Below, in pieces: positions 1,269 to 29,399 of a DNA stretch of 30,165 nucleotides; position 1 is the first letter of the stretch, and each line of letters begins with the position of its first letter. The DNA is from a virus. The DNA lies in the IMG/VR virus record IMGVR_UViG_3300035191_000049; one strand, given 5' to 3'. A model generated the notes under the pieces. It ran no database searches, was not told the DNA's origin, and was given only the letters and a program-made list of their open reading frames with translations. The position numbers and the translations under genes are program-made.

Positions 1269-2225
1269 ATGTCCTTCGATTTGAAGATTGAATGCGACGG
1301 CAATGAATACGACGCCACCATTGATGATGATGGCGACCTGCTCATCTTCGAGTACGATGCCTCCGAAGACGAGACGCTCGCCGAGATGGGTTATGAGCCC
1401 ACAGAATGCATGATGCTTTCGACGGGTTGGAAAGACTTCCGTGCGCTGCTGGAGAAGGACGGTCAGTGGGAAGACTTCATGGACGGCGTCACCGGCGCCG
1501 AAACAACGTTCGAGCTTGACGGTGAGGAGTTCACGGAACGATACGACATGGAGTTTGACGAGTTTCTGGACTACTTGACTACTTTCCTCAAGAAGTCCCT
1601 GGAAGATTTTGACAGCAGAAGCAGGAGTATCGCTCGCATCATCGGAGCGCTTTCGGACAGCTATGGGATCAGCATCGTTCTCCACTCGGTGCATGTTGAG
1701 GACCCTTCCCGGATACTGGAAGATGTCAGTCTTCAGCACATCCCTGAGATTTTTGAGAACGAGCTTGTTATCAACGATAAGTCGATAGCGAAGTGGAAAC
1801 GCGGATCGGCCCTGATCACCAACGACGTAATCGACTTGTACTACACCGAGCACGACATGGGGGAGTATGACGACGACTACAGGCCCCCAGGGATGTGGCC
1901 AGACTTCTGGACTATGGATAACAAAAACGACATGGATCACGTGCTCGCGAGCTTTGGCCTCGAAGACCAAGTCCCGCCACTACCAGAGCGCCCATGGGTT
2001 CCGGAGAAAGATCCCGATGGTCCGTATGGTGTCGAGTTCGTCGACTACTATTGGGACCAGCATGCGCAGGGTGGCAGAGAAATCAACACGACGGTCTGGT
2101 ATCCCGACCTGGAGTCAGCGAAGCGCCATTTCGAGATCGTCACGGACATCGGAACAGCAAACCAGCAGACGGAGGGTTTTCGAGTGATCGATCGAGAGGG
2201 AGAAATTGTCGCTTGGCATTTGTAG
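1269..2225 (+). CDS. paralog family member 1 (318 aa): shared N-terminal module + unique C-terminal region
   Basis: N-terminus FDLKIECDGNEYDATIDDDGDLLIFEYDASEDETLAEMGYEPTEC aligns with the N-termini of 2654-3418, 3421-4149, 4149-4982, 4985-5791 and the reverse gene 24688-24999. GTGAGG SD upstream. GC3-rich. Confidence 0.75.
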   Translation: MSFDLKIECDGNEYDATIDDDGDLLIFEYDASEDETLAEMGYEPTECMMLSTGWKDFRALLEKDGQWEDFMDGVTGAETTFELDGEEFTERYDMEFDEFLDYLTTFLKKSLEDFDSRSRSIARIIGALSDSYGISIVLHSVHVEDPSRILEDVSLQHIPEIFENELVINDKSIAKWKRGSALITNDVIDLYYTEHDMGEYDDDYRPPGMWPDFWTMDNKNDMDHVLASFGLEDQVPPLPERPWVPEKDPDGPYGVEFVDYYWDQHAQGGREINTTVWYPDLESAKRHFEIVTDIGTANQQTEGFRVIDREGEIVAWHL

Positions 2226-2234
2226 GAGAGTTTC

Positions 2235-2657
2235 ATGACGACATACGACTACGTCACCGAGTTTGATCCTGGTTTCAACGAGGGGAAGGTTCGATACGCG
2301 GCCCCCACTCACGTCCTTCAGGTCTATGGGACGCCAACGGAAGCGCGCAAGTACATCGCTGAGGAGTTTGGGCTTCCAGCGATCCCGCCGCCTGTCACCG
2401 TGCTTCCTCCTTACGATATTCGCAGCGGCCCCACGCGCACGTTGACGGTCGTTCCCCCTGGCTCAGTTCCAGGCGACCTGATCTCACAGCCCACCATGTG
2501 GAAGCAGATCGTCCCGGCGACGGGACTCGAAGGCTTCGGCACTGTTGCCAGTGGCAACGGCTCTGGCAACGGTTGGTTTCTCACAATTGGCGCGATCATT
2601 GGAGGATTCGTCCTCGCTCGCGTCGCGGCGGCGATGCTCGAACGGCGGGAGCGATGA
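2235..2657 (+). CDS. small hypothetical protein with C-terminal hydrophobic helix (membrane-anchored?)
   Basis: ATG 2235 preceded by GGAGAG (2224-2229). C-terminus GWFLTIGAIIGGFVLARVAAAML is TM-like. It interrupts the paralog array. Confidence 0.6.
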   Translation: MTTYDYVTEFDPGFNEGKVRYAAPTHVLQVYGTPTEARKYIAEEFGLPAIPPPVTVLPPYDIRSGPTRTLTVVPPGSVPGDLISQPTMWKQIVPATGLEGFGTVASGNGSGNGWFLTIGAIIGGFVLARVAAAMLERRER

Positions 2658-3418
2658 AGTCGAAGACCTTCGAGTTGGTCTGTGACGATGAGCGTCACAC
2701 CTTCATCCTCTACGAAGACGGGTCCATGGAGATTGAGAACTTCGACGAGGAAGAAGCCGAGACGCTTCGAGAGATGGGGTATCGAGAAGACTGTCTGTTT
2801 ACGCTTGAAGACTATCAGAATCGGCCCCTTCGATTCCTCGTTATTTTCTCGACCTATTTGTGTGGCGAAAAGCTTCGGCTGCTGCTTCACGGCATGATCG
2901 CAGAGTATTTTTACATGGTCCGAGAGGCGGTCCCGACGGACATGGCGAACCATCTCGAAAGAATGATGAATGTCATCGAGGAGGGCGACGGTTACAAAAG
3001 AGGCGATTGGGTCTGGGCAAAGAAAATGATCCGCAACTGGACTCAATTGAAAAAAGAAGCGCGGTGGCGCAGAGAGGACAAGGCCATGTATCCCACAGTC
3101 GTCGTGGGGCGAGGGCCTGACCCTGAGGTGGAGCGCCGTGTTCAAAAGATTTGCCTAACGATCATTTCTTTGTACGTCAGAAGCAGCAAGGGGGCGTTGG
3201 ATTGTGGGCAGTCTGCGGCGAAACGCATTGATGCATGGGACAATGTAGAGGAAATCGTACATAGGATAAGAGAGGTCGCCAGAGAACTTGCTGTCGATGA
3301 AGTCGTGGAAGCGGGCGGCGGTCTCAATGATATCGGTGACGTCAGGGAAGAGTCTTTCGAGGAATTTAATAGAGAGATTTTTGAAAAAGCTCTCAACATC
3401 ATCTTCGAGGAGGACTGA
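2654..3418 (+). CDS. paralog family member 2 (254 aa)
   Basis: ATG 2654 overlaps the upstream stop (ATGA). N-terminus KTFELVCDDERHTFILYEDGSMEIENFDEEEAETLREMGYREDC. The ORF-track start 2498 is a frame extension overlapping gene 2235-2657. Confidence 0.7.
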   Translation: MKSKTFELVCDDERHTFILYEDGSMEIENFDEEEAETLREMGYREDCLFTLEDYQNRPLRFLVIFSTYLCGEKLRLLLHGMIAEYFYMVREAVPTDMANHLERMMNVIEEGDGYKRGDWVWAKKMIRNWTQLKKEARWRREDKAMYPTVVVGRGPDPEVERRVQKICLTIISLYVRSSKGALDCGQSAAKRIDAWDNVEEIVHRIREVARELAVDEVVEAGGGLNDIGDVREESFEEFNREIFEKALNIIFEED

Positions 3419-3420
3419 CG

Positions 3421-4149
3421 GTGCCGGTTTCGATCACTATCTACTGCGACGACGAGCGTCAGGACGTCATCATCTATGAGGACGGATCCTTCGAGTTCGT
3501 GGGCTACGACTTCAGCGAGGACTTGACGCTCGAAGAGCTTGGATATGAGCCCTCGGATTGCCTGAGCGCGGCAAGGGAACTTGAAGGCGACATGGTCAAC
3601 TTTCTCCTGGGGTCGTGGACGGGCCTCGCATTCAACGCCGGCATCGAAGACATTCCTGGGACGGCCGTCGAATACGTCCTCGACTGCTTTGCTCACGTCG
3701 CTCAGCAGTTTGGAGAGGCGGTTCCAGATTTCAAGTGGGTGGCTGGGGATGTCATAACGATAGCGCGTGCTCACAACATGAACGTCGACAACGTCGAGCT
3801 GGAAGAGAGCATGTGGATTCGTGCCGACCTGATGCTGAAGTGGTTGCGTCAGTATGGTGTGCGCAGCGAGCCGGTTCCTTACGACCGCGAAGAGATGGAA
3901 AAAGTCCTCAATGAGTACATCGTCCTGCTCAAGGATTTTCTCAAGTACATCCTGAACGAGGACAACCTGCTAGAAGACATGGCCAGCGGAGACATTGATA
4001 CGACCGTCAGCCAGCTTCGTATCATCATGTCGGACTATGCCAGGGCCACTGGAGACCTCGAAGACCCGACCGCCAGCGAGATCGAAGAGGTCGAGTTCCG
4101 AGAGGAATCGTGGCAGCTCGCTCGGCTCTTGCAGTATTTGGAGGCGTGA
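3421..4149 (+). CDS. paralog family member 3 (242 aa)
   Basis: GTG start with strong SD GAGGAGGA upstream. N-terminus VSITIYCDDERQDVIIYEDGSFEFVGYDFSEDLTLEELGYEPSDC. Confidence 0.75.
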   Translation: MPVSITIYCDDERQDVIIYEDGSFEFVGYDFSEDLTLEELGYEPSDCLSAARELEGDMVNFLLGSWTGLAFNAGIEDIPGTAVEYVLDCFAHVAQQFGEAVPDFKWVAGDVITIARAHNMNVDNVELEESMWIRADLMLKWLRQYGVRSEPVPYDREEMEKVLNEYIVLLKDFLKYILNEDNLLEDMASGDIDTTVSQLRIIMSDYARATGDLEDPTASEIEEVEFREESWQLARLLQYLEA

Positions 4150-4982
4150 TGTCAGTGATCGTTCCTGTGAACTGTGAGAATACTCAGATCGAGATCGAAT
4201 TCTTTGAACACGGGAGCTTCGACGTTCACGGCTACGATATCGAAGAAGCCAAAGTGCTCGAAGAGATGGGCTACGACACACCCGAGTGTCTTGCGTTCCT
4301 TCGGAGGTTGAGCCAAAGGACACTCCGGTTTCTCCTCAAGCGGGTGCCACTCGACCCCTACGAGCTGATGATTACCTACCTGCTCGACTGCCTGCAGCAC
4401 TCCGCGGACTACGCCGAGTTCGATGAGTTCATCCCCTGGATGGATCAGGTTGCCGAGGCGATCCGGGAACTGGGGACTGAGGGAGAGCCCCTGCAAGGCG
4501 AGCTGTATGAGGAAGCTATCGGCCAGTACCGAAAGTTCAAGGAGTGGTGGACGCTCGAATATGGTGATTACATCTCTGGCGAAAGAGCAATTCAGAGTGG
4601 TTTTCGTGAATATGGGGGTCAAGAATTTGACGGGAACTACATGGCCTACCTCAACGACATAGTAAAGGCACACCTTCGATGGATCTTGGGGATGGCGATC
4701 GATCAAGACCCCAAGCGCGCGTGGGACCCAGGCGGCATGGGCTTTCCCAAGCTCTACCATTTCGTTGACGCCATGGCCAAGGGTGCCTCTTATTTTAGGG
4801 TATTCAAGGAATACCCAGAAATCACATGGGAGGATACTCTTGTCTACGAAGAGGGCATTTGGTTTCCGGCAACGGATGCTCCTCAGACTGCACAAACAAT
4901 CGATTTTCACGAACGCTTTTTCCCCGAGGAGCGCGCCTGGCAGATTGGCCGCTACGTCAAGTATCTTGAAGGCACGGAGTAG
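4149..4982 (+). CDS. paralog family member 4 (277 aa)
   Basis: ATG 4149 overlaps the TGA of the previous gene (TGATG). N-terminus VIVPVNCENTQIEIEFFEHGSFDVHGYDIEEAKVLEEMGYDTPEC. The segment after the module (RTLRFLLKRV...ITYLLDCLQH) also resembles members 2 and 3. Confidence 0.7.
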   Translation: MSVIVPVNCENTQIEIEFFEHGSFDVHGYDIEEAKVLEEMGYDTPECLAFLRRLSQRTLRFLLKRVPLDPYELMITYLLDCLQHSADYAEFDEFIPWMDQVAEAIRELGTEGEPLQGELYEEAIGQYRKFKEWWTLEYGDYISGERAIQSGFREYGGQEFDGNYMAYLNDIVKAHLRWILGMAIDQDPKRAWDPGGMGFPKLYHFVDAMAKGASYFRVFKEYPEITWEDTLVYEEGIWFPATDAPQTAQTIDFHERFFPEERAWQIGRYVKYLEGTE

Positions 4983-4984
4983 CC

Positions 4985-5791
4985 ATGGAGTGCATGTTCA
5001 AGGTCGGTGATGACTACGTCGGCATCGAGATCGACGACGAGGGGAATCTTCTCATCGACCAGGACGACATCGAGGAGGCAGTCGTTCTCGCCGAGATGGG
5101 CTACCCCATGAGTGACCTTGTCAAGTTCTACGACGCCTGGGCTCACCTCGAATACAACGAGCGCTGGAAGATCGTGAACCGCGGCGGCGATTTCGCGACG
5201 AGCGGCGATATTGGTGCGCTCCCTGTCTACAGCTATCTCAACGCGGAGCAGCGAGCGTGCCTCTCACTGAGTCTGACCGAGAAAGACAGGGCCGACGCTG
5301 CGCTCTATGCCGACAACCTCAACCCAGAGCTTCGTCTTCAGATGATCGAGAGCATCGGGACGGATGAAGCGTGGTCGAACTTTCTGGGCGAGTACCGATT
5401 CCTCGACGAGCAGCGACAGCGACAGCTCATCGACCAGCTCGCTCCCGAGTGGAAGGGCTGGCTCGCCCGCAAGGCGCGGGTGCTGACATATCCTCATCGT
5501 TTTGAGCTGATACTTGAAGCCCCGGACGGCGAGAAGATGGAGTTCCTGCAGACGCAGCAGTGGCTGACGCAGAACCAGCAGTTCGTCCTGATCAACTCAC
5601 TGGAGGACGAAGAATCTCTCTTCCACGTGCTCAGGTTGCCGCTCCAGCTCGCGATCACCTCTGACCAGAGGTTCGCCTTCGCCGATGCGATCGAGGACCC
5701 AGGACTGAGGGAAGAGCTGGCCCGCGTAGCGCCAGGACTCACTGATCAGCAGCGGGCTCTTCTGATCGATCCTGAGCTTGAGCCTCTTTGA
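4985..5791 (+). CDS. paralog family member 5 (268 aa, degenerate module lacking both Cys)
   Basis: N-terminus KVGDDYVGIEIDDEGNLLIDQDDIEEAVVLAEMGYPMSDL aligns with member 1 (DDDGDLLIFEYDASEDETLAEMGY). Its 3' end overlaps the convergent MTase gene by 53 nt. Confidence 0.7.
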   Translation: MECMFKVGDDYVGIEIDDEGNLLIDQDDIEEAVVLAEMGYPMSDLVKFYDAWAHLEYNERWKIVNRGGDFATSGDIGALPVYSYLNAEQRACLSLSLTEKDRADAALYADNLNPELRLQMIESIGTDEAWSNFLGEYRFLDEQRQRQLIDQLAPEWKGWLARKARVLTYPHRFELILEAPDGEKMEFLQTQQWLTQNQQFVLINSLEDEESLFHVLRLPLQLAITSDQRFAFADAIEDPGLREELARVAPGLTDQQRALLIDPELEPL

Positions 5792-6485
5792 TTCGCCGTG
5801 TAGAAACTTCGATCGCTTCGTCGCAAATATCACTTCCGCAGAAGATGCGCCCCAGCTCGACAGCCGCGACGCCGGCCGAGCCGCTCCCGCAGAAGGGGTC
5901 GCAGACGACTTCGCCAGGCTCAGTGCTTTGGCTGATGAGCGTCCGGAGGACGGGGACTGGCTTCTCGGTGGGGTAGCCCTTGTAGATGCGTTTCTCTCTG
6001 ATGACGTCTGGAATGGAGAGGTCGTTGAGCTTTCGCTTTCCTTTTTCGAAGAAGAGGATCAGTTCGTACCGGGCTCTGTAGTGATAGCCCATGCCGATGG
6101 CGACCTTATCCCATACGAGCGGCTTGTGGAACGTGAACCCGGCCTCTTCGGCGATCGGCTTTGCCACAAACATCGTTTCCTGGTCACAGAACAGGTAGCA
6201 ATGTGAATCCATCCTGAGGACGCGGTACAGTACTCTGAACAGATCATCGAAGCGTGAGTTTGGGAAGATTTGAAACCAGTCATTTGAAGAGGATTTCGAG
6301 TGGCTGAGCCTGGTCGTTGTCCCTTTTGCTCGGTGTTTCTCCAGTGATTCGTAGGGAGGGTCGGTCACGACGAGGTCGACCGATTCGTCCTCAAGACTTC
6401 CCAAAAAGTCAAGCGCATCCTGCTTAACGACCTGTGAAGTGACAAATCGCGGTCCCCCGCGAAAAAAGAGCGGTTCCTGTTTCAT
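5739..6485 (-). CDS. DNA methyltransferase, beta-class amino-MTase (N6-adenine or N4-cytosine), 248 aa
   Basis: Motif IV VVTDPPY comes before motif I VVCDPFCGSGSAGVAA. DPPY before FxGxG defines the beta class. Start set at internal Met 6483-6485 (MKQEPLFFRGG...). The 581-aa ORF-track version has an R/G/P-rich N-terminal extension overlapping the + gene 6573-7334. Confidence 0.8.
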   Translation of the reverse strand: MKQEPLFFRGGPRFVTSQVVKQDALDFLGSLEDESVDLVVTDPPYESLEKHRAKGTTTRLSHSKSSSNDWFQIFPNSRFDDLFRVLYRVLRMDSHCYLFCDQETMFVAKPIAEEAGFTFHKPLVWDKVAIGMGYHYRARYELILFFEKGKRKLNDLSIPDVIREKRIYKGYPTEKPVPVLRTLISQSTEPGEVVCDPFCGSGSAGVAAVELGRIFCGSDICDEAIEVSTRRIKEAQAQDRSEEPAADQ

Positions 6486-6495
6486 CGGCGGCAAT

Positions 6496-6541
6496 ATAGC
6501 ACATGCAATATCCTCTGGACAAGGTAGGTTGCATATGTTAC
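6496..6541 (+). promoter_or_regulatory. divergent regulatory region: partial palindrome ATAGCACATGCAAT (6496-6509), TGGACA (6516-6521), palindrome GTTGCATATGTTAC (6528-6541)
   Basis: Lies between the leftward MTase start (6485) and the rightward gene 6573. Same architecture as the other four sites. Confidence 0.55.
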
Positions 6542-6572
6542 CCCTAGGATATGTGCGAGCGAAAGGACCATC

Positions 6573-7334
6573 GTGATGTCCAAGGAAAAAGAGCGATGCC
6601 CCGAGTGCAGAATGTTGGGCCAGCACAAGCTTCAGTGCAGTCGTCGTGAGGACGGAGGGCAGGTGCGCCTGCCTATGAAGATGGTCAAGCGCGCTGTGCC
6701 TCATCCAGAGCACCCCTCGGGAAAGGACCACTTCTCCGTCCAGGTGCTCTCTGACCCATGGTGTTGGGTCGTTGTCCGCTTCAAGCTCGAAACGATGCAC
6801 GAGGACATGGGGACGCTCATCACCATGCTCGGGGCCGACTACGGATCGAAAAGCCCCAAGATGCTCCGGGACGATCTGTTCCGAATGGAGTTCCCCTTCA
6901 GCGATGGAAATACTCACGCTGGCATGTTCGCGCTCGAAGCGTGGCAGGCGCTCAGCCGCAACATGTGGTGCGGCGATCTCGACGAAGAGCTTTCCTTCTT
7001 CAGGACCCATCGAACTATCTGGGAGCTGGGCCACGAGCTGACCTACCACGAGGAGCTGAAGATTCTCCGTTTCCTGCGCGATAACCCCGAGAAGCAGTGG
7101 GGGAAGAAGGGGGCTGTCCTCATCGAGCTTCAGGACACGCTGGGCATTGGCGGCGGCGCCATCCTCACGCTCATCGAGCCGAGCGGCGGCTTCGAGGATT
7201 ACCAGTACGTCGTCACCATCGGCGGCTTCCGCTCCGGCAACCCCTTTACCATCGACCTGCCAGCCGTCGAAGCGCGGATCGCCCTGATGGAGGAACAGGG
7301 GCCTCCAGACCCCTGGGAGGAGTCGGCAGATTGA
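6573..7334 (+). CDS. hypothetical protein with N-terminal CPEC-x9-C zinc-finger-like motif (253 aa)
   Basis: GTG 6573 / ATG 6576. GC3-rich long ORF. Lies downstream of the divergent palindrome region. Confidence 0.6.
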   Translation: MMSKEKERCPECRMLGQHKLQCSRREDGGQVRLPMKMVKRAVPHPEHPSGKDHFSVQVLSDPWCWVVVRFKLETMHEDMGTLITMLGADYGSKSPKMLRDDLFRMEFPFSDGNTHAGMFALEAWQALSRNMWCGDLDEELSFFRTHRTIWELGHELTYHEELKILRFLRDNPEKQWGKKGAVLIELQDTLGIGGGAILTLIEPSGGFEDYQYVVTIGGFRSGNPFTIDLPAVEARIALMEEQGPPDPWEESAD

Positions 7335-7732: not shown

Positions 7733-8013
7733 TCTGTCTACGCTGCGGCTACTGCTGCACAACCACCATGGTCGTCATCGTGGACGACCCAAAGCTCGGC
7801 ATCGTAGAAGATAACCTCAAGGCCGTGGGCTTCAATGGTCCCGAGCGATGTCAGCATCTCGTCGGCGACAAGCCAGGCGAGTATTCCTGCGCCGTTCACG
7901 ACGAGCCCTGGTACTGCGAGACGCCTTGTGCCTCTCACGGGCAGATTGAGCGATCGCCCACAGACGAGTGCCGAATGGGTCGCTACATCCTAGACGGTGG
8001 CCTCGACGACTAA
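7729..8013 (+). CDS. CxxCxxCC cysteine-cluster protein (YkgJ/UPF0153-like putative metal-chelating domain)
   Basis: N-terminus ICLRCGYCC matches CxxCgxCC, with further Cys downstream. GTG 7729 overlaps the upstream stop. Confidence 0.55.
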   Translation: MICLRCGYCCTTTMVVIVDDPKLGIVEDNLKAVGFNGPERCQHLVGDKPGEYSCAVHDEPWYCETPCASHGQIERSPTDECRMGRYILDGGLDD

Positions 8014-8034
8014 TTGCATCTGCTACTTTTTCAC

Positions 8035-8060
8035 TGGACAAGAAATGTAGCATATGCTAC
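8035..8060 (+). promoter_or_regulatory. promoter/operator-like site 2: CTTTTTCAC-TGGACA-AGAAAT-GTAGCATATGCTAC (perfect 14-bp palindrome)
   Basis: Sits in the 60-nt gap after the 8013 stop. A T-tract lies just upstream. The degenerate half-site TTGCATCTGCTAC at 8014-8026 sits alongside. Confidence 0.55.
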
Positions 8061-8073
8061 CTCTCTCTGCACT

Positions 8074-8229
8074 ATGGGTGAGGAGTCGATTTACGAGAAG
8101 AGCGAGTGCCCGGTCTGCCATCGCATGGAGTACTGTGACTGGTTTCTTTTCGGTGAATACCGCTGCGATTCTTGCTACTTCAGCTACATCTACTCCATGT
8201 GGGACACCTGGAGATTATTGGGGTATTGA
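8074..8229 (+). CDS. small zinc-ribbon protein (51 aa)
   Basis: MGEESIYEKSECPVCHRMEYCDWFLFGEYRCDSCYF contains CxxC-x3-C and CxxC. The first ATG lies downstream of promoter-like site 2. The TTG 8014 start in the ORF track would read straight through the motif. Confidence 0.45.
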   Translation: MGEESIYEKSECPVCHRMEYCDWFLFGEYRCDSCYFSYIYSMWDTWRLLGY

Positions 8230-8486: not shown

Positions 8487-8778
8487 GTTCGCAAAGATCT
8501 TTTTTGCTGCGTTCATCTGGGTGCTGTTTATCGGCATCAACACTCGAATTGTGGCCCATAGAACCGATTTCCTCATTCCGGCCTTCTGGTCGATGGTCGT
8601 CGGCATCGTCTGGGTCATCGTCATCCGTGAAGTCATTTTTGCAGAGCACGTCAGGTCGCTCGCGGCCTATCCGATAGGCGCAGCCCTCGCAACCGGGCTC
8701 GTCACCAAGTTCGTTCCGTCACGGGCCAAATGGCTCAATCACGACTGCAAGGAGAAAGAAGACAATGCCAAGACTTGA
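8479..8778 (+). CDS. small membrane protein (2-3 predicted TM helices)
   Basis: Hydrophobic stretches FFAAFIWVLFIGI and FWSMVVGIVWVIVI. Start assigned to GTG 8479 and is uncertain. Confidence 0.45.
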   Translation: MAEFAKIFFAAFIWVLFIGINTRIVAHRTDFLIPAFWSMVVGIVWVIVIREVIFAEHVRSLAAYPIGAALATGLVTKFVPSRAKWLNHDCKEKEDNAKT

Positions 8779-12018: not shown

Positions 12019-12501
12019 ATGGGCTATCGAACCACCAAAATCGAAACCCCCATGCTCGTCAAACGCTGGTGGGCTCGGCCCGTCTGCTGGTTTATCGGTC
12101 ACAAGTGGTATGTGCTCGGCATCAACATGGGGAAGAACGCCGGGCTCTCGCACCTCCATCCAGACGCCGGCATCGACAAGTTCTGCACCCGTTGCGGAGC
12201 CGAATGGTACGACGGCAAAATGGTGACCGATGGCTTCCAACGCGCGCCTCGCGACAAAGAACCCATCCCCCCGAAGAAGAAGCTGAAGAAGCCGGTTATC
12301 AAGAAGCCGAAGCGTCCGAAGCGTCCAAAGCGTCCGAAGCCACCGACGAGCCCATGGAGGATGAAGATGCGTCCGAAGACGAGCCCATGGAGGATGAAGA
12401 TGCCTCCGAAGCCGCCTATGCCGAAGATGCCAAAGATGCCGAAAATGTCTGACTTTGGTGGCGGCATCTTTGACTCCACCATATTCGACAAGGACGATTA
12501 G
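12019..12501 (+). CDS. basic K/P-rich repeat protein (160 aa) with N-terminal CxxC domain
   Basis: ATG follows the upstream TAG directly. The C-terminal half is encoded by DNA tandem repeats (PKRPKRPKRPK, 2x TSPWRMKM, 3x PKM). GC3 analysis favours this frame over the acidic overlapping frame 12069-12452. Confidence 0.55.
   Translation: MGYRTTKIETPMLVKRWWARPVCWFIGHKWYVLGINMGKNAGLSHLHPDAGIDKFCTRCGAEWYDGKMVTDGFQRAPRDKEPIPPKKKLKKPVIKKPKRPKRPKRPKPPTSPWRMKMRPKTSPWRMKMPPKPPMPKMPKMPKMSDFGGGIFDSTIFDKDD
12307..12449 (+). repeat. in-frame tandem repeats (4 x 9 bp CCGAAGCGT-like; 2 x 33 bp GACGAGCCCATGGAGGATGAAGATGCGTCCGAA; 3 x 9 bp ATGCCGAAG)
   Basis: Direct repeats are visible in the sequence. The repeat unit boundaries are approximate. 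Confidence 0.7.
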
Positions 12502-14488: not shown

Positions 14489-14515
14489 TGGACACCGCTG
14501 TGTAGCACATGCTAC
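14489..14515 (+). promoter_or_regulatory. promoter/operator-like site 3: CTTTTTTC-TGGACA-CCGCTGT-GTAGCACATGCTAC followed by TTTTGG
   Basis: Sits in the 107-nt intergenic gap 14443-14549. T6 tract directly upstream of the -35-like TGGACA. Confidence 0.55.
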
Positions 14516-19984: not shown

Positions 19985-20623
19985 ATGTTCACAGAGCGAA
20001 AGAACCACGAGCTAACCCTGCGCAGCTCACACGTCGTCGACGGCGCCCTCGGCGAGTACGGCCACACCGAAATCACCCGCGCCGATAACGAGATGCGGAT
20101 CGTTTGCGGCTCGGACGACAACCCGCACATGTTCGAGAACTTCAGCTCCGACCGCTACGCAATAGTCAACGGGCTGCGGATCATCATCAAGCTCTGGAAC
20201 CCAGAGCAAATACTCACGCTCGTCCGCGGACTCACCGTCGCGCTCTATACCTCAAGGGAACCAAACCCTCTCCGGGCCACTTGGAAGAAAGCGAACCGGC
20301 AGATCTACTTCCCAGGAGGCATTATCCTCGACAAGCGCATGGGGCGGTGGGAGATCGGTGACCACGGAGAGCGAATCTGCAACCTGTGGACGATGGACCC
20401 TGCCGTTATCGACAACGAGACAAGAGTTTGGATCGTGATGACGCTCGACAACGCGGCGCTCGAAGTCTTCCATTCAATTGAGCGCGTTACAAGTCCCGTC
20501 AATCGGTTTGCATCTGTCGAGGTCAAACTGCTCGGTGATGTCATCGAGGAGAAACAGGTTTCGGAGCCCCGGTCTTTGCCCTCAGACCCCGCAGACGACT
20601 CCATGAAAAAACAGGAAGGCTAG
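19985..20623 (+). CDS. hypothetical protein (212 aa)
   Basis: AGGAGG SD upstream. GC3 bias. Confidence 0.6.
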   Translation: MFTERKNHELTLRSSHVVDGALGEYGHTEITRADNEMRIVCGSDDNPHMFENFSSDRYAIVNGLRIIIKLWNPEQILTLVRGLTVALYTSREPNPLRATWKKANRQIYFPGGIILDKRMGRWEIGDHGERICNLWTMDPAVIDNETRVWIVMTLDNAALEVFHSIERVTSPVNRFASVEVKLLGDVIEEKQVSEPRSLPSDPADDSMKKQEG

Positions 20624-20626
20624 CCG

Positions 20627-20713
20627 ATGATACGAAAAGAACTTGAATCATCACACAGCTTCATTCAGGAGATCATGGAGTACTTACGCGGGCAGAAGGA
20701 GAAGGGGGCATGA
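20627..20713 (+). CDS. possible 28-aa micro-ORF (MIRKELESSHSFIQEIMEYLRGQKEKGA)
   Basis: AGGAAGG SD 7 nt upstream. Its stop overlaps the next ATG (ATGA). The 5' half is unusually AT-rich for this genome, so it may be non-coding leader. Confidence 0.25.
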   Translation: MIRKELESSHSFIQEIMEYLRGQKEKGA

Positions 20714-21288
20714 GGAGCATCACCGAAATCAACGGAGAGCGTCATTACAAAGAAGAGCATCCTCCGAACATCAAGCGCATCATCGAGCTACCCTGGGTCG
20801 GCGTCGCCGAGATCGGCATCCGCACCATTCGCCTGCAGAAGCGCTTCGAACGCGTCCTCTTCCCAGACAATCTCCCCGAGATGCTCGAAAGCCAAAGCGT
20901 GCGCTTCAACCAGCTTGAAGGGACCCCATACACCGTCGCTGAGGATTCGCTCCGCATTCACCAGCTCGTCCCCTACCTCATCAGCTCGAAGCACCTAGGA
21001 CTCACTACCCACGTCAAGTTCACGGTCATCATCGGCGACACCTACAGGATGCCCGTCATGCTCGGCCAGGTTGACCAGGGGTGCGGAGGCACCGCGGTTC
21101 ACATGGGTCAGCCGGTCCCGGTTCCTCCGAGACAGCCGCTCGTCGTCGACATCGACTTCGACTGCCGTACCAACTTCGTCCTGGCCAATGCTCTCGGTGA
21201 GATGCTCAAGGATACGAATGCGCGCTTCGCGCTCGGTCTCAGGCTGGTCGGCTTCCAGAGGACGGAGATTCGCCGGGACGAGTGGTAG
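20710..21288 (+). CDS. hypothetical protein (192 aa)
   Basis: Strong SD AAGGAGAAGGGGG. The stop abuts the stop of the convergent gene at 21289. Confidence 0.6.
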   Translation: MRSITEINGERHYKEEHPPNIKRIIELPWVGVAEIGIRTIRLQKRFERVLFPDNLPEMLESQSVRFNQLEGTPYTVAEDSLRIHQLVPYLISSKHLGLTTHVKFTVIIGDTYRMPVMLGQVDQGCGGTAVHMGQPVPVPPRQPLVVDIDFDCRTNFVLANALGEMLKDTNARFALGLRLVGFQRTEIRRDEW

Positions 21289-21876
21289 TCAGCGGACGAT
21301 CCAGGTTGCCAGCGCCAACGGCTGCCAGTTATCGGCGTTCCAGGACTCCAAATTCAGGTCGTGATCCTCGACGGCCTTTTCTATATCCGCTGGCCCCACC
21401 TCTCCCGGCCAGTCATGCACGCTCACGACGCTCCCCGGGGCCATCAGCGGAACGAACGTGTAGAACTCCCATTTCTTAGAGCCGTTGTCACAGTAGAGGT
21501 AGGCCGGTTCGGTTCCCAGTGCCTCGATCACCTGAGGCTTGCCAATGTCAGAAAAAATGTCAGTCCAGTGCGTCTGTATCCCGAGCGCATCGTAGATGGG
21601 CTTCGCCCCGTCGTCGATGTTGTGCTCCTTGTTAAAGGGAAAAGAATCCTGGTCGAAGGTGTGCATCGGAATGCCGAGCCTCACGGCCCACAGACCGAGA
21701 TAGATCGACATTGCACCCATAGACGTTCCAAGCTCGACGATCGACCGAATCTGCCTGTTCTCGTGCAAGAGCACACTGAGCTGATGGTAAAGCGCGAAGG
21801 CGTGCTGAGCGCGCTGTCCCGCAAAGAGTTTTTCGTAGCCAAAGGTCGTTACTGAATCCGTCAACGCTGCCTCCAT
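21289..21876 (-). CDS. class I SAM-dependent methyltransferase, TylF/CmcI-like (195 aa)
   Basis: Motif I IVELGTSMGAMSIYLG follows the IvE.G...G.S pattern of TylF/CmcI O-MTase-like enzymes. GC3-rich on the minus strand. The divergent region upstream carries palindrome site 4. Confidence 0.6.
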   Translation of the reverse strand: MEAALTDSVTTFGYEKLFAGQRAQHAFALYHQLSVLLHENRQIRSIVELGTSMGAMSIYLGLWAVRLGIPMHTFDQDSFPFNKEHNIDDGAKPIYDALGIQTHWTDIFSDIGKPQVIEALGTEPAYLYCDNGSKKWEFYTFVPLMAPGSVVSVHDWPGEVGPADIEKAVEDHDLNLESWNADNWQPLALATWIVR

Positions 21877-21882
21877 TTTCCC

Positions 21883-21908
21883 TGGACACCCAAGGTAGCA
21901 TATGTTAC
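21883..21908 (+). promoter_or_regulatory. divergent promoter/operator-like site 4: CATTTTCCC-TGGACA-CCCAAG-GTAGCATATGTTAC; TACTTT sits 17 nt after TGGACA
   Basis: Lies between the leftward gene start 21876 and the rightward gene 21954. Confidence 0.55.
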
Positions 21909-21953
21909 TTTACGGGCGCAACCGAAAGCAATTGTTTATCACTAGGGGCCTAC

Positions 21954-23964: not shown

Positions 23965-24487
23965 AAGGGGACGAGTCACTCACAGGGTACCGTCTCGTCG
24001 AAAAAAGAAATCGGCAGAGAAGCCCTCGATTCAAATCAAGCGGATTCAGCGGGTCATCCAGGCGACGGTTCCGGATGACATGAGCTTGAAACAGCTCGCC
24101 GAGCTGTACCGCTACGAGGGTATGCACCTCGGAATGAAGATCGCCGTCGGACTCCCAGACGGGCTCGTCGACCAGGTCTCGCTGGGAGAAATGCCGACCA
24201 GGGTCGAGACCATCAAACTCTGCCGAATGATCGGTGAGGGGCTCAGGGCAGCGCTCCGGAAGACGTTGGCTCACCTGGAGACGCTCCAGGCTGATATTGA
24301 AAACGCCGCTGGTTACGTTCCGGCTGGTGACGAAGAAAACATCGTTCCGGACGACTTCGTCCGTCTCATTACGCTGCCCGAAGACGAGGGCGGCGGCACC
24401 TGCGCCGAGTTGGATCCCGCGCGTCGCTGCATCGGGTCGACTCCAGCAGAAGCCCTAAGAGCCCTTGCCGATGTCCTCGAAAGCTAG
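23951..24487 (+). CDS. hypothetical protein with basic N-terminus (178 aa)
   Basis: N-terminus GKGKRGRVTHRVPSRRKKKS. GC3 bias. Confidence 0.55.
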   Translation: MGKGKRGRVTHRVPSRRKKKSAEKPSIQIKRIQRVIQATVPDDMSLKQLAELYRYEGMHLGMKIAVGLPDGLVDQVSLGEMPTRVETIKLCRMIGEGLRAALRKTLAHLETLQADIENAAGYVPAGDEENIVPDDFVRLITLPEDEGGGTCAELDPARRCIGSTPAEALRALADVLES

Positions 24488-24719
24488 TGAGAAAATCCTC
24501 GCCGCCCACAGAGCGAGCTACGGTCGCGACATGATCCGCAACCTCCGCATCGAGGGCCGGTGCTTTACTTGCCTGATGCGCGAAGAGCTGTACCCGGCCA
24601 CTCACCCTGAGAGCGGATCAAGAATCTATCTGTGTGAGTACTGCAAGCTCGATCAGGAGCTGAAGGAGGCGTTCGAGCAGAGTATTTTCAGCCCTCGATC
24701 TGCCCTGTCAGCTTCTTGA
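24465..24719 (+). CDS. small zinc-ribbon protein (84 aa)
   Basis: CFTC-x20-CEYC. ATG 24471 is an alternative start. The 3' end overlaps the convergent gene 24688-24999 by 32 nt. Confidence 0.5.
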   Translation: MPMSSKASEKILAAHRASYGRDMIRNLRIEGRCFTCLMREELYPATHPESGSRIYLCEYCKLDQELKEAFEQSIFSPRSALSAS

Positions 24720-24999
24720 ACGTCTCGGCGTGCCGATCGAAGGTTCTCTGAGCCATTGCCATAGAGTAGGCACTCTCAACCAACCCCTTCGACACCTCGA
24801 CACCTTCAGCGTTGTAGAACCCCATCTGGCTCAGCTCTTCGCTCGTCGTCTCGAAGACGCACATGCGGCCGTCCCAGAAATAGATGACCAGATGGACACC
24901 ATGCGTCTTGGCGATGATGCGGTCGATGGTGACTTTCATGCCGTGAGATAGATGGAGATCGCTCGGTGTGATGTCCTGCTTGACGTGGGTTGCTTTCAT
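24688..24999 (-). CDS. paralog family member 6: stand-alone copy of the shared module (103 aa)
   Basis: HLVIYFWDGRMCVFETTSEELSQMGFYNAEG aligns with DDDGDLLIFEYDASEDETLAEMGYEPTE of member 1. GC3-rich on the minus strand. Its start lies 26 nt from palindrome site 5. Confidence 0.6.
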   Translation of the reverse strand: MKATHVKQDITPSDLHLSHGMKVTIDRIIAKTHGVHLVIYFWDGRMCVFETTSEELSQMGFYNAEGVEVSKGLVESAYSMAMAQRTFDRHAETFKKLTGQIEG

Positions 25000-25024: not shown

Positions 25025-25054
25025 GTTGCATATGCTACCTTTCTTCCATATAAT
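25025..25054 (+). promoter_or_regulatory. site 5: palindrome GTTGCATATGCTAC (25025-25038) embedded in a sigma70-like promoter TTGCAT (25026-25031) - 17 nt - TATAAT (25049-25054)
   Basis: Near-consensus -10 with exact 17-nt spacing. T-tracts upstream. Lies between the leftward gene start 24999 and the rightward gene 25199. Confidence 0.6.
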
Positions 25055-28032: not shown

Positions 28033-28746
28033 ATGAAACTCAAACGCGACAAACGAGTCGGTATATTCTTCAGTTACAACTCAGAGATCGCGCGCTTTCT
28101 CGGATATGCTCGGTTTCACGGGGACCAAGAGCTTTCCGAGGCTGCCATCGAACGCCTTGCCGTCGCCGGTGAGTTCGATGGCAGCAATGTCAACCTCGGT
28201 CGATCCACGAGGGCCAAGAGCGAAAGCCGACAGGAAAAGTTTTGCCTCGAAAAGGACGGCCTCATCATCTACGGCCAAGAATGTTGTTACGCAGATGAGA
28301 CGCGTACCAAACGACTCCTCAAGAACGCCAAGAAAGTAGAGGAGGTTGACATCGAGGAGCTGCGCAAGAAGGAGAAAGCGCGCCAGGAAGCACTCAGCGA
28401 CCTGACTGGCAGTCGCGTCATTCACGGCTTTGTCCAGATCAATGTCTCATTCAGGATGGCTCACGTTCGCGAGGGCGAAGAGCTGGAAGACCTGATCGTG
28501 AAACAGCTTCTTCGCGCCGGAAAATACGACACGACACCATTCGCCGGCTGCCTCAAAGATGACATCGAAGTAAAGGTCAGACAGGATGATTGGCACTTCT
28601 GCGCTATCGATGAGTCGCACGGGCTCGCCACCGAGGTCGCCTACGTTAAGACGCGAGGCAAGGACTTGCCGCTCTGCCTCGCCTGCTATGCGGAAGCAAC
28701 CGGTACCACCGTCGAGAAGCTGAACACAATAAGAAGTAAGAGATGA
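28033..28746 (+). CDS. hypothetical protein (237 aa)
   Basis: ATG 28033 lies 1 nt after the upstream TGA, with GAGAGAGG SD. The ORF-track start 27853 is a frame extension through the previous gene. Confidence 0.6.
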   Translation: MKLKRDKRVGIFFSYNSEIARFLGYARFHGDQELSEAAIERLAVAGEFDGSNVNLGRSTRAKSESRQEKFCLEKDGLIIYGQECCYADETRTKRLLKNAKKVEEVDIEELRKKEKARQEALSDLTGSRVIHGFVQINVSFRMAHVREGEELEDLIVKQLLRAGKYDTTPFAGCLKDDIEVKVRQDDWHFCAIDESHGLATEVAYVKTRGKDLPLCLACYAEATGTTVEKLNTIRSKR

Positions 28747-28865
28747 AACCATTTACGTAAAGACTCGAACCATGGCCAACACATTCCCTGAAAAATGCAA
28801 AGTCGCGCGCTCCACCGAGGTCATCGAACAGATGGACCACGAGAACTTGGAGACAGAACTATCGC

Positions 28866-29399
28866 ATGAAGGGAATGAGACCCATGACACGTATCCTACT
28901 GGACCTCGCCGGGCTGGAGCGCCTCATCGGTGGCGACAACGAGGCCGAAATCAAGATTCGCGAATGCATCGTCCAGACGTTCGCGAAGAAGCACCTGAAG
29001 AAACTCGTCAACGCACAGGCATTCCAGCCGAAGCTCGACGAGATCAAGGAAGCCGTCCAGGCGGAGTTTCAGGCGCAAATCCCCATCAAGGTGAAAAAGT
29101 CGACACACTGGAACAGCCGCGACCAGTACATCCTCGACGAGCGGCATCCGACGTGCCAGAAGCTCAAGCAGCTCATCAAGGAGGAGGCGGAGTCGCTGAT
29201 GAAGGACATCCTCAGGACGGTCAAGGCCGAAATCCGCGAGGAGTGGACTTCTCTCATCGAAAAGACCCGCCTAAGGCTCCTCGAAGAGATTCAAAAGGCG
29301 GTCAAGAAAAACATCGACGACGCCTTCGAGGCGACGGTCAAGGCCGAGGTCAACCGTCGCTTTCAGGCGATCGCTGCTCAGGTGGCGCAGGAGGGCTGA
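28866..29399 (+). CDS. hypothetical helical protein (177 aa)
   Basis: Strong GC3 bias and helical K/E-rich composition. ATG 28884, with AAGGGA SD, is an alternative start. The overlapping frame 28772-29407 becomes R/G/P-rich junk downstream. Confidence 0.55.
   Translation: MKGMRPMTRILLDLAGLERLIGGDNEAEIKIRECIVQTFAKKHLKKLVNAQAFQPKLDEIKEAVQAEFQAQIPIKVKKSTHWNSRDQYILDERHPTCQKLKQLIKEEAESLMKDILRTVKAEIREEWTSLIEKTRLRLLEEIQKAVKKNIDDAFEATVKAEVNRRFQAIAAQVAQEG

Follow-up and report, generated by a model that had tools for sequence, protein, structure and literature searches.

Orphan DNA methyltransferases are typical accessory cargo, and divergent back-to-back promoter pairs which share an operator region are found generally in bacterial and phage regulation. 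Morons, the class of single genes of temperate phages to which HK97 gene 15 and the lambda bor and lom genes belong, are usually described as having a differing GC content together with their own promoter and terminator, and as being expressed from a repressed prophage (PMC3594210), and the mobile regulatory cassettes of T4-type phages known as promoter-early stem-loops (PeSLs; Arbiol et al. 2010) combine a promoter with a stem-loop which terminates transcription effectively (PMC2839356). The present work concerns a stretch of viral DNA of 30,165 nucleotides (nt), IMG/VR record IMGVR_UViG_3300035191_000049 (the window, meaning the whole stretch analysed), in which about 52 tightly packed rightward genes are accompanied by only three leftward ones, with independent gene callers concurring on identical contigs, and in which each leftward gene begins beside a copy of the palindrome GTWGCAYATGYTAC, 14 base pairs (bp) long. 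We consider it reasonably probable that the palindrome belongs to a conserved rightward promoter/operator-like module of ~30 bp to which exchangeable reversed genes are attached.

The leftward genes resemble morons in that they are single accessory genes set amid conserved phage genes. They also seem to be replaced in some close relatives, and candidate promoters of their own are given by consensus matches for the methyltransferase gene (gene 1) and by a mirror reading of the palindrome for gene 2. Unlike morons, they have native composition, lack a terminator and overlap the neighbouring gene at their 3' ends. Because of the native composition and the absence of terminators they are only loosely morons, so that the moron-like character attributed to them in an earlier reading of the same DNA (the original prediction) holds loosely for their exchange in relatives but does not extend to their GC content, third-position GC content (GC3), codon usage or termination. 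The resemblance to PeSLs lies in a short conserved sigma-70-like module which is repeated in the genome, and in breakpoints of insertion, replacement and partner swapping which fall at that module; here, however, the one structure present is a weak 5-bp stem which the palindrome can form within the predicted promoter (-1.1 to -6.1 kcal/mol), there is no terminator, and the associated genes are reversed. As in divergent promoter pairs, candidate promoters on opposite strands lie within ~70 bp of each other, their -35 elements overlap and a palindrome overlaps one of the two, but in the window the palindrome lies only on the rightward candidate (with a weak second copy at the module copies designated P1 and P2), and the module also occurs with no divergent partner. 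Gene 1 agrees with the orphan beta-class phage DNA methyltransferases (PF01555; CcrM/MboIIA/DpnA-like) in its domain, in its DPPY motif and in having no nuclease seen nearby, while its reversed, promoter-linked placement is a feature of this gene here and not of the family. The arrangement as a whole resembles a compact version of accessory-gene cassettes already known from phages, and not a new kind of system or a new principle.

The palindrome and its surroundings

The palindrome has five copies in the window, at 6528, 8047, 14502, 21895 and 25025 (P1 to P5 in Table 1), all of them in intergenic DNA ahead of a gene that runs rightward. When up to two mismatches are allowed, the pattern GTWRCATATGYWAC is matched six times in the window against 0.21 matches expected. 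In four of the five copies CTGGACA, preceded by a T-tract, is found on the plus strand 6 nt upstream of the palindrome (7 nt at 14502), and the same orientation, in which a T-tract, CTGGACA, six or seven nucleotides, the palindrome and CTT follow one another, is seen in these four copies and in most of 11 instances from relatives. The 16 aligned instances from the window and its relatives yield the consensus TTTT..CTGGACA-N6-GTAGCAYATGYTAC-CT; the surrounding DNA varies, and the consensus is kept in relatives with 30-40% protein divergence.

The five motif copies split the window into rightward blocks, and at three of these five junctions there is a reversed gene. Each of the three leftward starts is thus at a junction with the motif, an outcome with a random probability of ~4e-4 (assuming ~55 gene junctions, five of them with the motif). 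The palindromes at 6528-6541, 21895-21908 and 25025-25038 are 42, 18 and 25 nt from the starts of genes 1, 2 and 3, which bears out the original prediction that each leftward start has a palindrome upstream; at 8047 and 14502 the palindrome is not accompanied by a leftward gene. The reading of the palindrome as a signal that belongs to the leftward genes is not supported, because an oriented rightward motif heads all five forward blocks, including the two which lack a leftward gene.

The motif reads as a rightward sigma-70-type promoter, with TGGACA as the putative -35 element, a 17-nt spacer, TGn as an extended -10 and TACCTT (TAnnnT) as the -10 hexamer. The right half of the palindrome supplies TGnTAC, and the left half sits within the spacer of the predicted promoter. 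Since this left half is conserved even though a promoter alone would not conserve its spacer, a dimeric DNA-binding regulator is suggested, and the palindrome appears best explained as the operator-like site of such a regulator.

A sigma-54 promoter was also considered and rejected: the sigma-54 consensus has a GG-GC spacing of ~12 nt, whereas CTGGACA-N6-GTWGC puts GG and GC ~14 nt apart. A literal search of the literature for the palindrome returned, primers aside, only the EBNA1 binding site of Epstein-Barr virus, which we regard as a coincidence.

Downstream of P2 the next gene begins at 8074, which is 13 nt beyond the palindrome, and has no Shine-Dalgarno sequence; the group of relatives typified by contig L023 (9236-9265) has GTGATG at an equal distance, which suggests that the leaders at these places are very short or absent; P2 itself is kept in contig L006, while the 13 nt downstream of it diverge. 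P5 reads TGC-TACCTT (25034-25041) and also TTGCAT, 17 nt, TATAAT (25026-25054). For the large gene after P5 the callers are split between 642 amino acids (aa; GTG 25070, called on L031) and 599 aa (ATG 25199), with the DNA identical in all contigs.

Weak second palindromes lie 32-34 bp upstream of the main ones at P1 (6496) and P2 (8013), and hold ranks 6-7 among the window positions scored with a position weight matrix (PWM), which is not significant by score alone; the one at P1 is notable for where it lies. PWM ranks 8-9 are held by 20620-20633 and 28736-28749, at the remaining pair of long intergenic gaps (20623-20710 and 28746-28884), and these might be degenerate motif copies with scores within the range of chance.

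The leftward genes and their exchange in relatives

Genes 1, 2 and 3 are the only credible leftward genes of the window. Gene 1 matches Pfam PF01555 (N6_N4_Mtase) with E = 1.3e-30 and 107.5 bits against a cut-off of 26.7, and a PHROG family of DNA methyltransferases at 1e-44; its translation contains DPPY and FCGSGS, so that the beta-class PF01555 domain is found together with the catalytic and the S-adenosylmethionine (SAM)-binding motif, and its relatives in the PDB are CcrM, MboIIA and DpnA. Homologues are kept in L023, L007, L009 and L021, and comparison with relatives gives a proportion of nonsynonymous differences (pN) of 0.26 against a saturated synonymous value (pS) of 0.78, which indicates purifying selection. 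CATATG gives no signal in the window as a target of the enzyme or as an avoided site (5 observed, 4.2 expected), and no cognate nuclease was noticed near the gene; no restriction-enzyme family appears in Pfam among the 52 rightward window proteins.

Gene 2 has only a weak Pfam match, below threshold, to Methyltransf_24. Its AlphaFold model (predicted local distance difference test, pLDDT, 83) shows the alternating beta/alpha elements of a Rossmann-type methyltransferase fold, and the top matches of the model in the PDB, found by Foldseek with probability 1.0, are the sugar O-methyltransferase MeT1, cation-dependent COMT-like enzymes, CmcI and TrmR. With the invariant glycine-rich motif VELGT..G as SAM motif in a class I methyltransferase fold, the product is confidently modelled as class I O-methyltransferase-like. 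Homologues share 37-71% identity with it, several of them adjoin glycosyltransferases, and the ratio of nonsynonymous to synonymous substitution (dN/dS) against relatives is ~0.10. Its true start may be TTG 21864, with GGAGG ahead of it, instead of ATG 21876. Gene 3 matches no Pfam or PHROG family and its structure model is unusable (pLDDT 51); its dN/dS against the homologue in L041 is 0.11. All three genes are thus under purifying selection, the lack of which in relatives had been named with the original prediction as grounds for doubting them. None of them has a Shine-Dalgarno-like core at its annotated start, as against 36 of 52 rightward genes.

In composition (GC, GC1-3 and a synonymous codon score) all three lie within 1.3 standard deviations of 47 rightward genes, with GC3 of 0.66-0.76. 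The extents first assigned to their convergent junctions (53, 0 and 32 nt of overlap or abutment) are right, independent gene callers agree on them, and the description of single reversed genes without a terminator stands as well: no terminator-like hairpin and no unusually stable fold was found at the three 3' junctions, where all six z-scores are at least -0.5. In the absence of a terminator, transcription of both strands would necessarily give overlapping convergent transcripts. In L023 the two genes of the 53-nt overlap abut (TGATCA), and compared with that contig each of the two proteins has a variable or extended tail.

A scan of metagenomes with the motif returned 24 contigs, of which ~10 have sequence or protein similarity to the window, and homology searches with genes 2 and 3 added others (all are designated by L numbers). 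Contigs L001-L005 and L031-L036 are identical to the window, with zero variation, and give no population-level comparison. Scans with the motif found no match in viral contigs and none in 185,579 reference genomes.

In L006 (90% nucleotide identity; 3.3 kb, left boundary unseen), homology with the window sets in at 6554, so that the breakpoint (6553/6554) is 12 nt beyond the P1 palindrome, and both the methyltransferase gene and P1 are missing; two other plus-strand genes stand there, translationally coupled to the next gene. In L009 and L021 a leftward methyltransferase gene is followed by the motif and then by a homologue of the 231-aa gene, in the slot which gene 2 occupies in the window. 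In L023 and L007 the reversed methyltransferase gene abuts the upstream gene (TGATCA) and lies beside a version of the motif that reads CTTGCCA-N6-palindrome; a further motif copy in L023, at 9236, has no leftward open reading frame (ORF).

L022 (80% nucleotide identity) retains gene 2 and P4, and over the ~62 nt from CTGGACA to ~35 nt past the palindrome it has one mismatch with the window, where the flanking coding DNA is 78-82% identical. Gene 2 is likewise reversed beside the motif in L037 (71% aa identity, syntenic) and in L043 (68% aa identity, rearranged, with an RNA ligase adjacent), and the similarity of both contigs to the window stops within a few nucleotides of the palindrome. In L041, whose gene 3 has 87% aa identity, P5 is unchanged, with 35 identical nt counted from the start of the palindrome. 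The homologue is the sole reversed gene in L037, L042, L043 and L041, with 3' overlaps of 4, 11, 11 and 26 nt. A sigma-70-like module, with its promoter predicted from sequence, is repeated in the manner of a PeSL-like cassette (five copies in 30 kb), and in this small sample the breakpoints between relatives coincide with it (L006, L037 and L043, with partners swapped in L009 and L021). As to whether related phages show these genes as indels, a comparison called for with the original prediction, the methyltransferase gene and P1 seem to be replaced in L006, with no clean insertion there, and a methyltransferase gene takes the slot of gene 2 in L009 and L021.

Several observations were made in passing on these contigs. 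The 253-aa window protein encoded beside P1 appears to be a fusion (6573-6675 against L006 591-1025): a Zn-ribbon-like N terminus of ~30 residues (CPECR...C) corresponds to the beginning of a 144-aa gene that stands by itself in L006, the remainder matches the next L006 gene, of 219 aa, and ~330 nt of L006 are missing in the window. A homology search with this protein returned only itself and L006. Twelve motif-search matches, L012, L015-L018, L020, L024, L025 and L027-L030, are rhizosphere contigs with no detected similarity to the window; this contig family carries a near-perfect ~41-bp palindrome, CTGGACAAATGCGTGTAGCATATGCTACACGAATTCTCCAG, inside ~107-nt repeats (GGTTCATGGAAAGCC...GTGCATTGGGAC), and the match could be due to chance. 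L040, an unrelated-looking phage contig with a gene-2 homologue, has similar palindromes, ATAGCAYRTGCTAT and GTTGCATATGTAAC, at 2918-2931 and 8528-8572 beside TTGACA/TTGACG hexamers, once paired 31 bp apart, and a small HTH_3 gene, which hints that the operator type may be wider than the lineage studied here. In reference genomes a gene-2 profile found a single locus, in a Planctomycetota metagenome-assembled genome, where the gene is co-oriented within a non-phage-looking cluster; this is uninformative on the host.

Table 1. Coordinates of the leftward genes, their 3' junctions, the motif copies and the candidate leftward promoters in the window.
Feature	Coordinates	Strand	Description	Basis
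Leftward gene 1	5739-6485	-	DPPY beta-class N6-adenine/N4-cytosine DNA methyltransferase, 248 aa	Pfam, PHROG, PDB relatives
Convergent overlap, 53 nt	5739-5791	both	3' end of gene 1 with rightward gene 4985-5791; no stable fold	
Candidate gene 1 promoter	6493-6522	-	TTGTCC, 18 nt, TG-n-TATATT, 7 nt before ATG; no Shine-Dalgarno, leaderless-like	consensus scan
Weak secondary palindrome	6496-6509		ATAGCACATGCAAT, 32 bp from main P1 palindrome; overlaps candidate leftward -10	PWM rank 7
Motif copy P1	6515-6544	+	CTGGACA, N6, GTTGCATATGTTAC, ccc; heads genes from 6573/6576	
Motif copy P2	8013-8063	+	weak palindrome 8013-8026, CTGGACA 8034-8040, perfect palindrome 8047-8060; no leftward gene	
Motif copy P3	14488-14518	+	CTGGACA, N7, GTAGCACATGCTAC, ttt; no leftward gene; heads genes from 14550	
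Stop-to-stop junction	21286-21291		TAG/TCA, 20710-21288 (+) with gene 2 (-), 0 nt apart	
Leftward gene 2	21289-21876	-	class I SAM-dependent O-methyltransferase-like, 195 aa (191 aa from TTG 21864)	structure and homologues
Motif copy P4	21882-21911	+	CTGGACA, N6, GTAGCATATGTTAC, ttt; heads genes from 21954	
Candidate gene 2 promoter	21892-21921	-	other palindrome face: TTGCGC, 18 nt, TGC-TACCTT	direct reading, kept in L022
Convergent overlap, 32 nt	24688-24719		gene 3 with rightward gene 24471-24719 (alternative start 24465)	
Leftward gene 3	24688-24999	-	103-aa protein, no recognisable family	homologues 82-89% identity
Motif copy P5	25025-25054	+	palindrome GTTGCATATGCTAC, no CTGGACA; heads gene from GTG 25070	

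Proposed transcription at the block junctions and competing explanations

In the explanation that we favour, the 14-bp palindrome would be the core of an oriented promoter-plus-operator-like module of ~30 bp which heads each rightward block, and each leftward gene would occupy the junction between two rightward blocks, directly against the module, so as to form with it one exchangeable unit. The module would restart rightward transcription behind the reversed gene, which would itself be transcribed from its own sigma-70-like promoter, placed back-to-back with the rightward one. Besides the candidate promoter of gene 1, the consensus scanner reported TTGTCC-17-TACAAT in L037 and TTGTCT-17-TATGAT in L043, upstream of the gene-2 homologues. 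In the window methyltransferase region, L037 and L043 the leftward -35 candidate lies within the divergent gap and on the same base pairs as the rightward -35 candidate, so that these pairs would share their -35 base pairs (TTGTCC leftward, GGACAA rightward) and the back-to-back candidates would span ~70 bp. At P4 (in the window and in L022) and in L009 the leftward start is only 5-15 nt from CTGGACA, and the common -35 layout is therefore impossible there; for gene 2 and in L022 the leftward promoter may instead use the mirror face of the palindrome, a candidate which we infer from our own reading of the sequence and which the consensus scanner did not report.

The genome is tightly packed, and the 3' overlaps probably arose as by-products when genes were inserted into it with minimal spare DNA. 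Because no terminators exist at the convergent junctions, transcriptional interference across them is plausible, and strong rightward transcription would be expected to dampen the reversed genes. Pre-early or lysogenic expression and antisense coupling, which the original prediction raised, stay conjectural. The view that the three genes are independently transcribed cassettes agrees with their exchange in relatives and with the sigma-70-like candidate promoters of two of the three, but it has no such candidate to call on for gene 3.

A number of points weigh against this explanation. P5 lacks CTGGACA, the -10 hexamers TACCCC, TACCTC and TACTTT are poor by the standards of E. coli, and every promoter assignment is a consensus match. 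No helix-turn-helix (HTH) or other recognisable DNA-binding family was found among 52 window proteins. L006 shows a replacement and no clean insertion, and the cassette reading leans on few short metagenomic contigs; L039, L040 and L044 have gene-2 homologues that point the same way as the genes beside them, and in L042 the homologue has no motif. For gene 3 the analysis gave no convincing leftward promoter. The divergent regions differ both in the distance from palindrome to start (42, 18 and 25 nt) and in having two leftward-promoter layouts, so that the "one design" originally ascribed to the three genes is loose: convergent overlap or abutment and an upstream palindrome are common to all of them, but distances and promoter layouts are not.

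The strongest competing explanation is that the motif is simply the strong promoter of this lineage and that the arrangement has no regulatory meaning. Reversed genes would then survive only at block boundaries, because elsewhere the operon would be broken, and the overlaps would reflect compaction. This agrees with the native composition of the genes, with the fact that any divergent junction requires a rightward promoter, and with the same-strand junctions of the window, which also overlap often, by 1-19 nt, the packing being tight genome-wide. We nevertheless consider it unlikely. In L006 the genes at the position downstream of P1 are coupled to the upstream plus-strand genes with no promoter, and it follows that P1 is present only together with the methyltransferase gene; the same left partner (gene and motif) recurs with different right partners; and reversed gene-2 homologues recur in four different contexts.

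It has also to be considered whether the palindrome serves mainly to control the leftward genes, as a bidirectional element at which a single dimeric regulator would switch them, with the copies at 8047 and 14502 being relics of leftward genes since lost, or drivers of antisense RNA. A symmetric palindrome does present TGnTAC on both strands, the minus strand at P4 and in L022 reads TTGCGC-18-TGC-TACCTT with 35 conserved nt on the right-hand side of the palindrome, and the weak second palindromes which flank P1 and P2 include one, at P1, that overlaps the -10 candidate of the methyltransferase gene. The asymmetry of the motif makes such a role quite unlikely, however: the T-tract and CTGGACA never change sides and the spacing between CTGGACA and the palindrome is constant, while the distance from the palindrome to the leftward start varies over 18-58 nt. 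Two of the five copies, and the copy at 9236 in L023, have no leftward ORF, and a usable minus-strand -10 (TAnnnT) is about equally frequent at non-divergent and divergent copies, which are not told apart by mirrored minus-strand -35/-10 elements.

That the palindrome is instead an RNA or DNA hairpin, acting as a terminator of the upstream block, as a hairpin promoter of the type used by the N4 virion RNA polymerase, or as the C-box of a restriction-modification controller together with the methyltransferase, is very improbable, for although a 5-bp stem with a 4-nt loop is possible, a scanner called 8060-8047 (minus strand) terminator-like and one copy lies beside a DNA methyltransferase gene, the stem has little predicted stability (the values given above), the T-tract precedes the hairpin on the plus strand where in a terminator it would follow, four of the five copies are not beside a DNA methyltransferase gene, the 52 rightward window proteins include, by Pfam, neither a C-protein/HTH family nor a restriction-enzyme family, the sole ORF seen that has the size of a giant RNA polymerase is a 1056-aa gene just beyond the window, its content not examined, and no Rfam family is matched.

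The promoter/operator-like module with its exchangeable reversed genes can be extended into a more ambitious proposal. The ~30-bp module would then be a portable linker, reversed accessory genes would be swapped between block starts by homologous recombination among the dispersed motif copies, as in the shuffling of PeSLs but with no terminator, and one dimeric regulator at the palindrome would choose between leftward and rightward firing, because both promoters would share the same -35 base pairs. We regard this extension as speculative and rather doubtful.

Genome setting and significance

The window is contained in a metagenomic contig of at least 83 kb, and identical proteins are found on contigs of up to 123 kb. 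Its dense genes, its one-strand layout and its avoidance of 6-bp palindromes fit a phage or a similar mobile element, and the genome is probably that of an uncultured phage. Comparison of 25 kb of the window with 50,697 phage records by megablast gave zero matches, protein-level searches of viral contigs that used the 845-aa and the 253-aa protein as queries found nothing, and neither a tRNA scan nor Rfam gave a match. Apart from the DNA methyltransferase, a PHROG scan of 10 proteins yielded one weak match and Pfam recognised NUDIX, Macro, DUF5662, DUF4026_C and Zn-ribbon domains among the 52 rightward proteins, in which it found no integrase or repressor family.

Four 6-bp palindromes are fully absent from the window, namely GAGCTC (25 expected), CTCGAG (23), CAGCTG (12) and GGGCCC (6), and CTAG is rarer than expected (14 against 30); the missing palindromes look like restriction-site avoidance. 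Five tandem rightward genes at 1269-5791 are distant paralogues (15-20% identity) with a common N-terminal motif, D.EEA..L.EMGY; the array is visible also as a DNA repeat family, and the same array lies upstream of the methyltransferase gene of L023. Inside the gene at 12019-12501, a 33-nt tandem duplication at 12345-12410, exact to 97% (GACGAGCCCATGGAGGATGAAGATGC.TCCGAA), adds an acidic 11-residue repeat.

Since this lineage is almost wholly dark matter, a defined motif gives a handle on its transcription units. The motif may also point to the sigma-factor preference of the host, and it is usable as a search key for related genomes, having located ~10 contigs with detectable similarity. A reversed accessory gene followed by a promoter that would restart the operon, with alternative cargo in the same slot, is a small example of how genes may be added without breaking an operon, and such accessory genes may include some that act against restriction.

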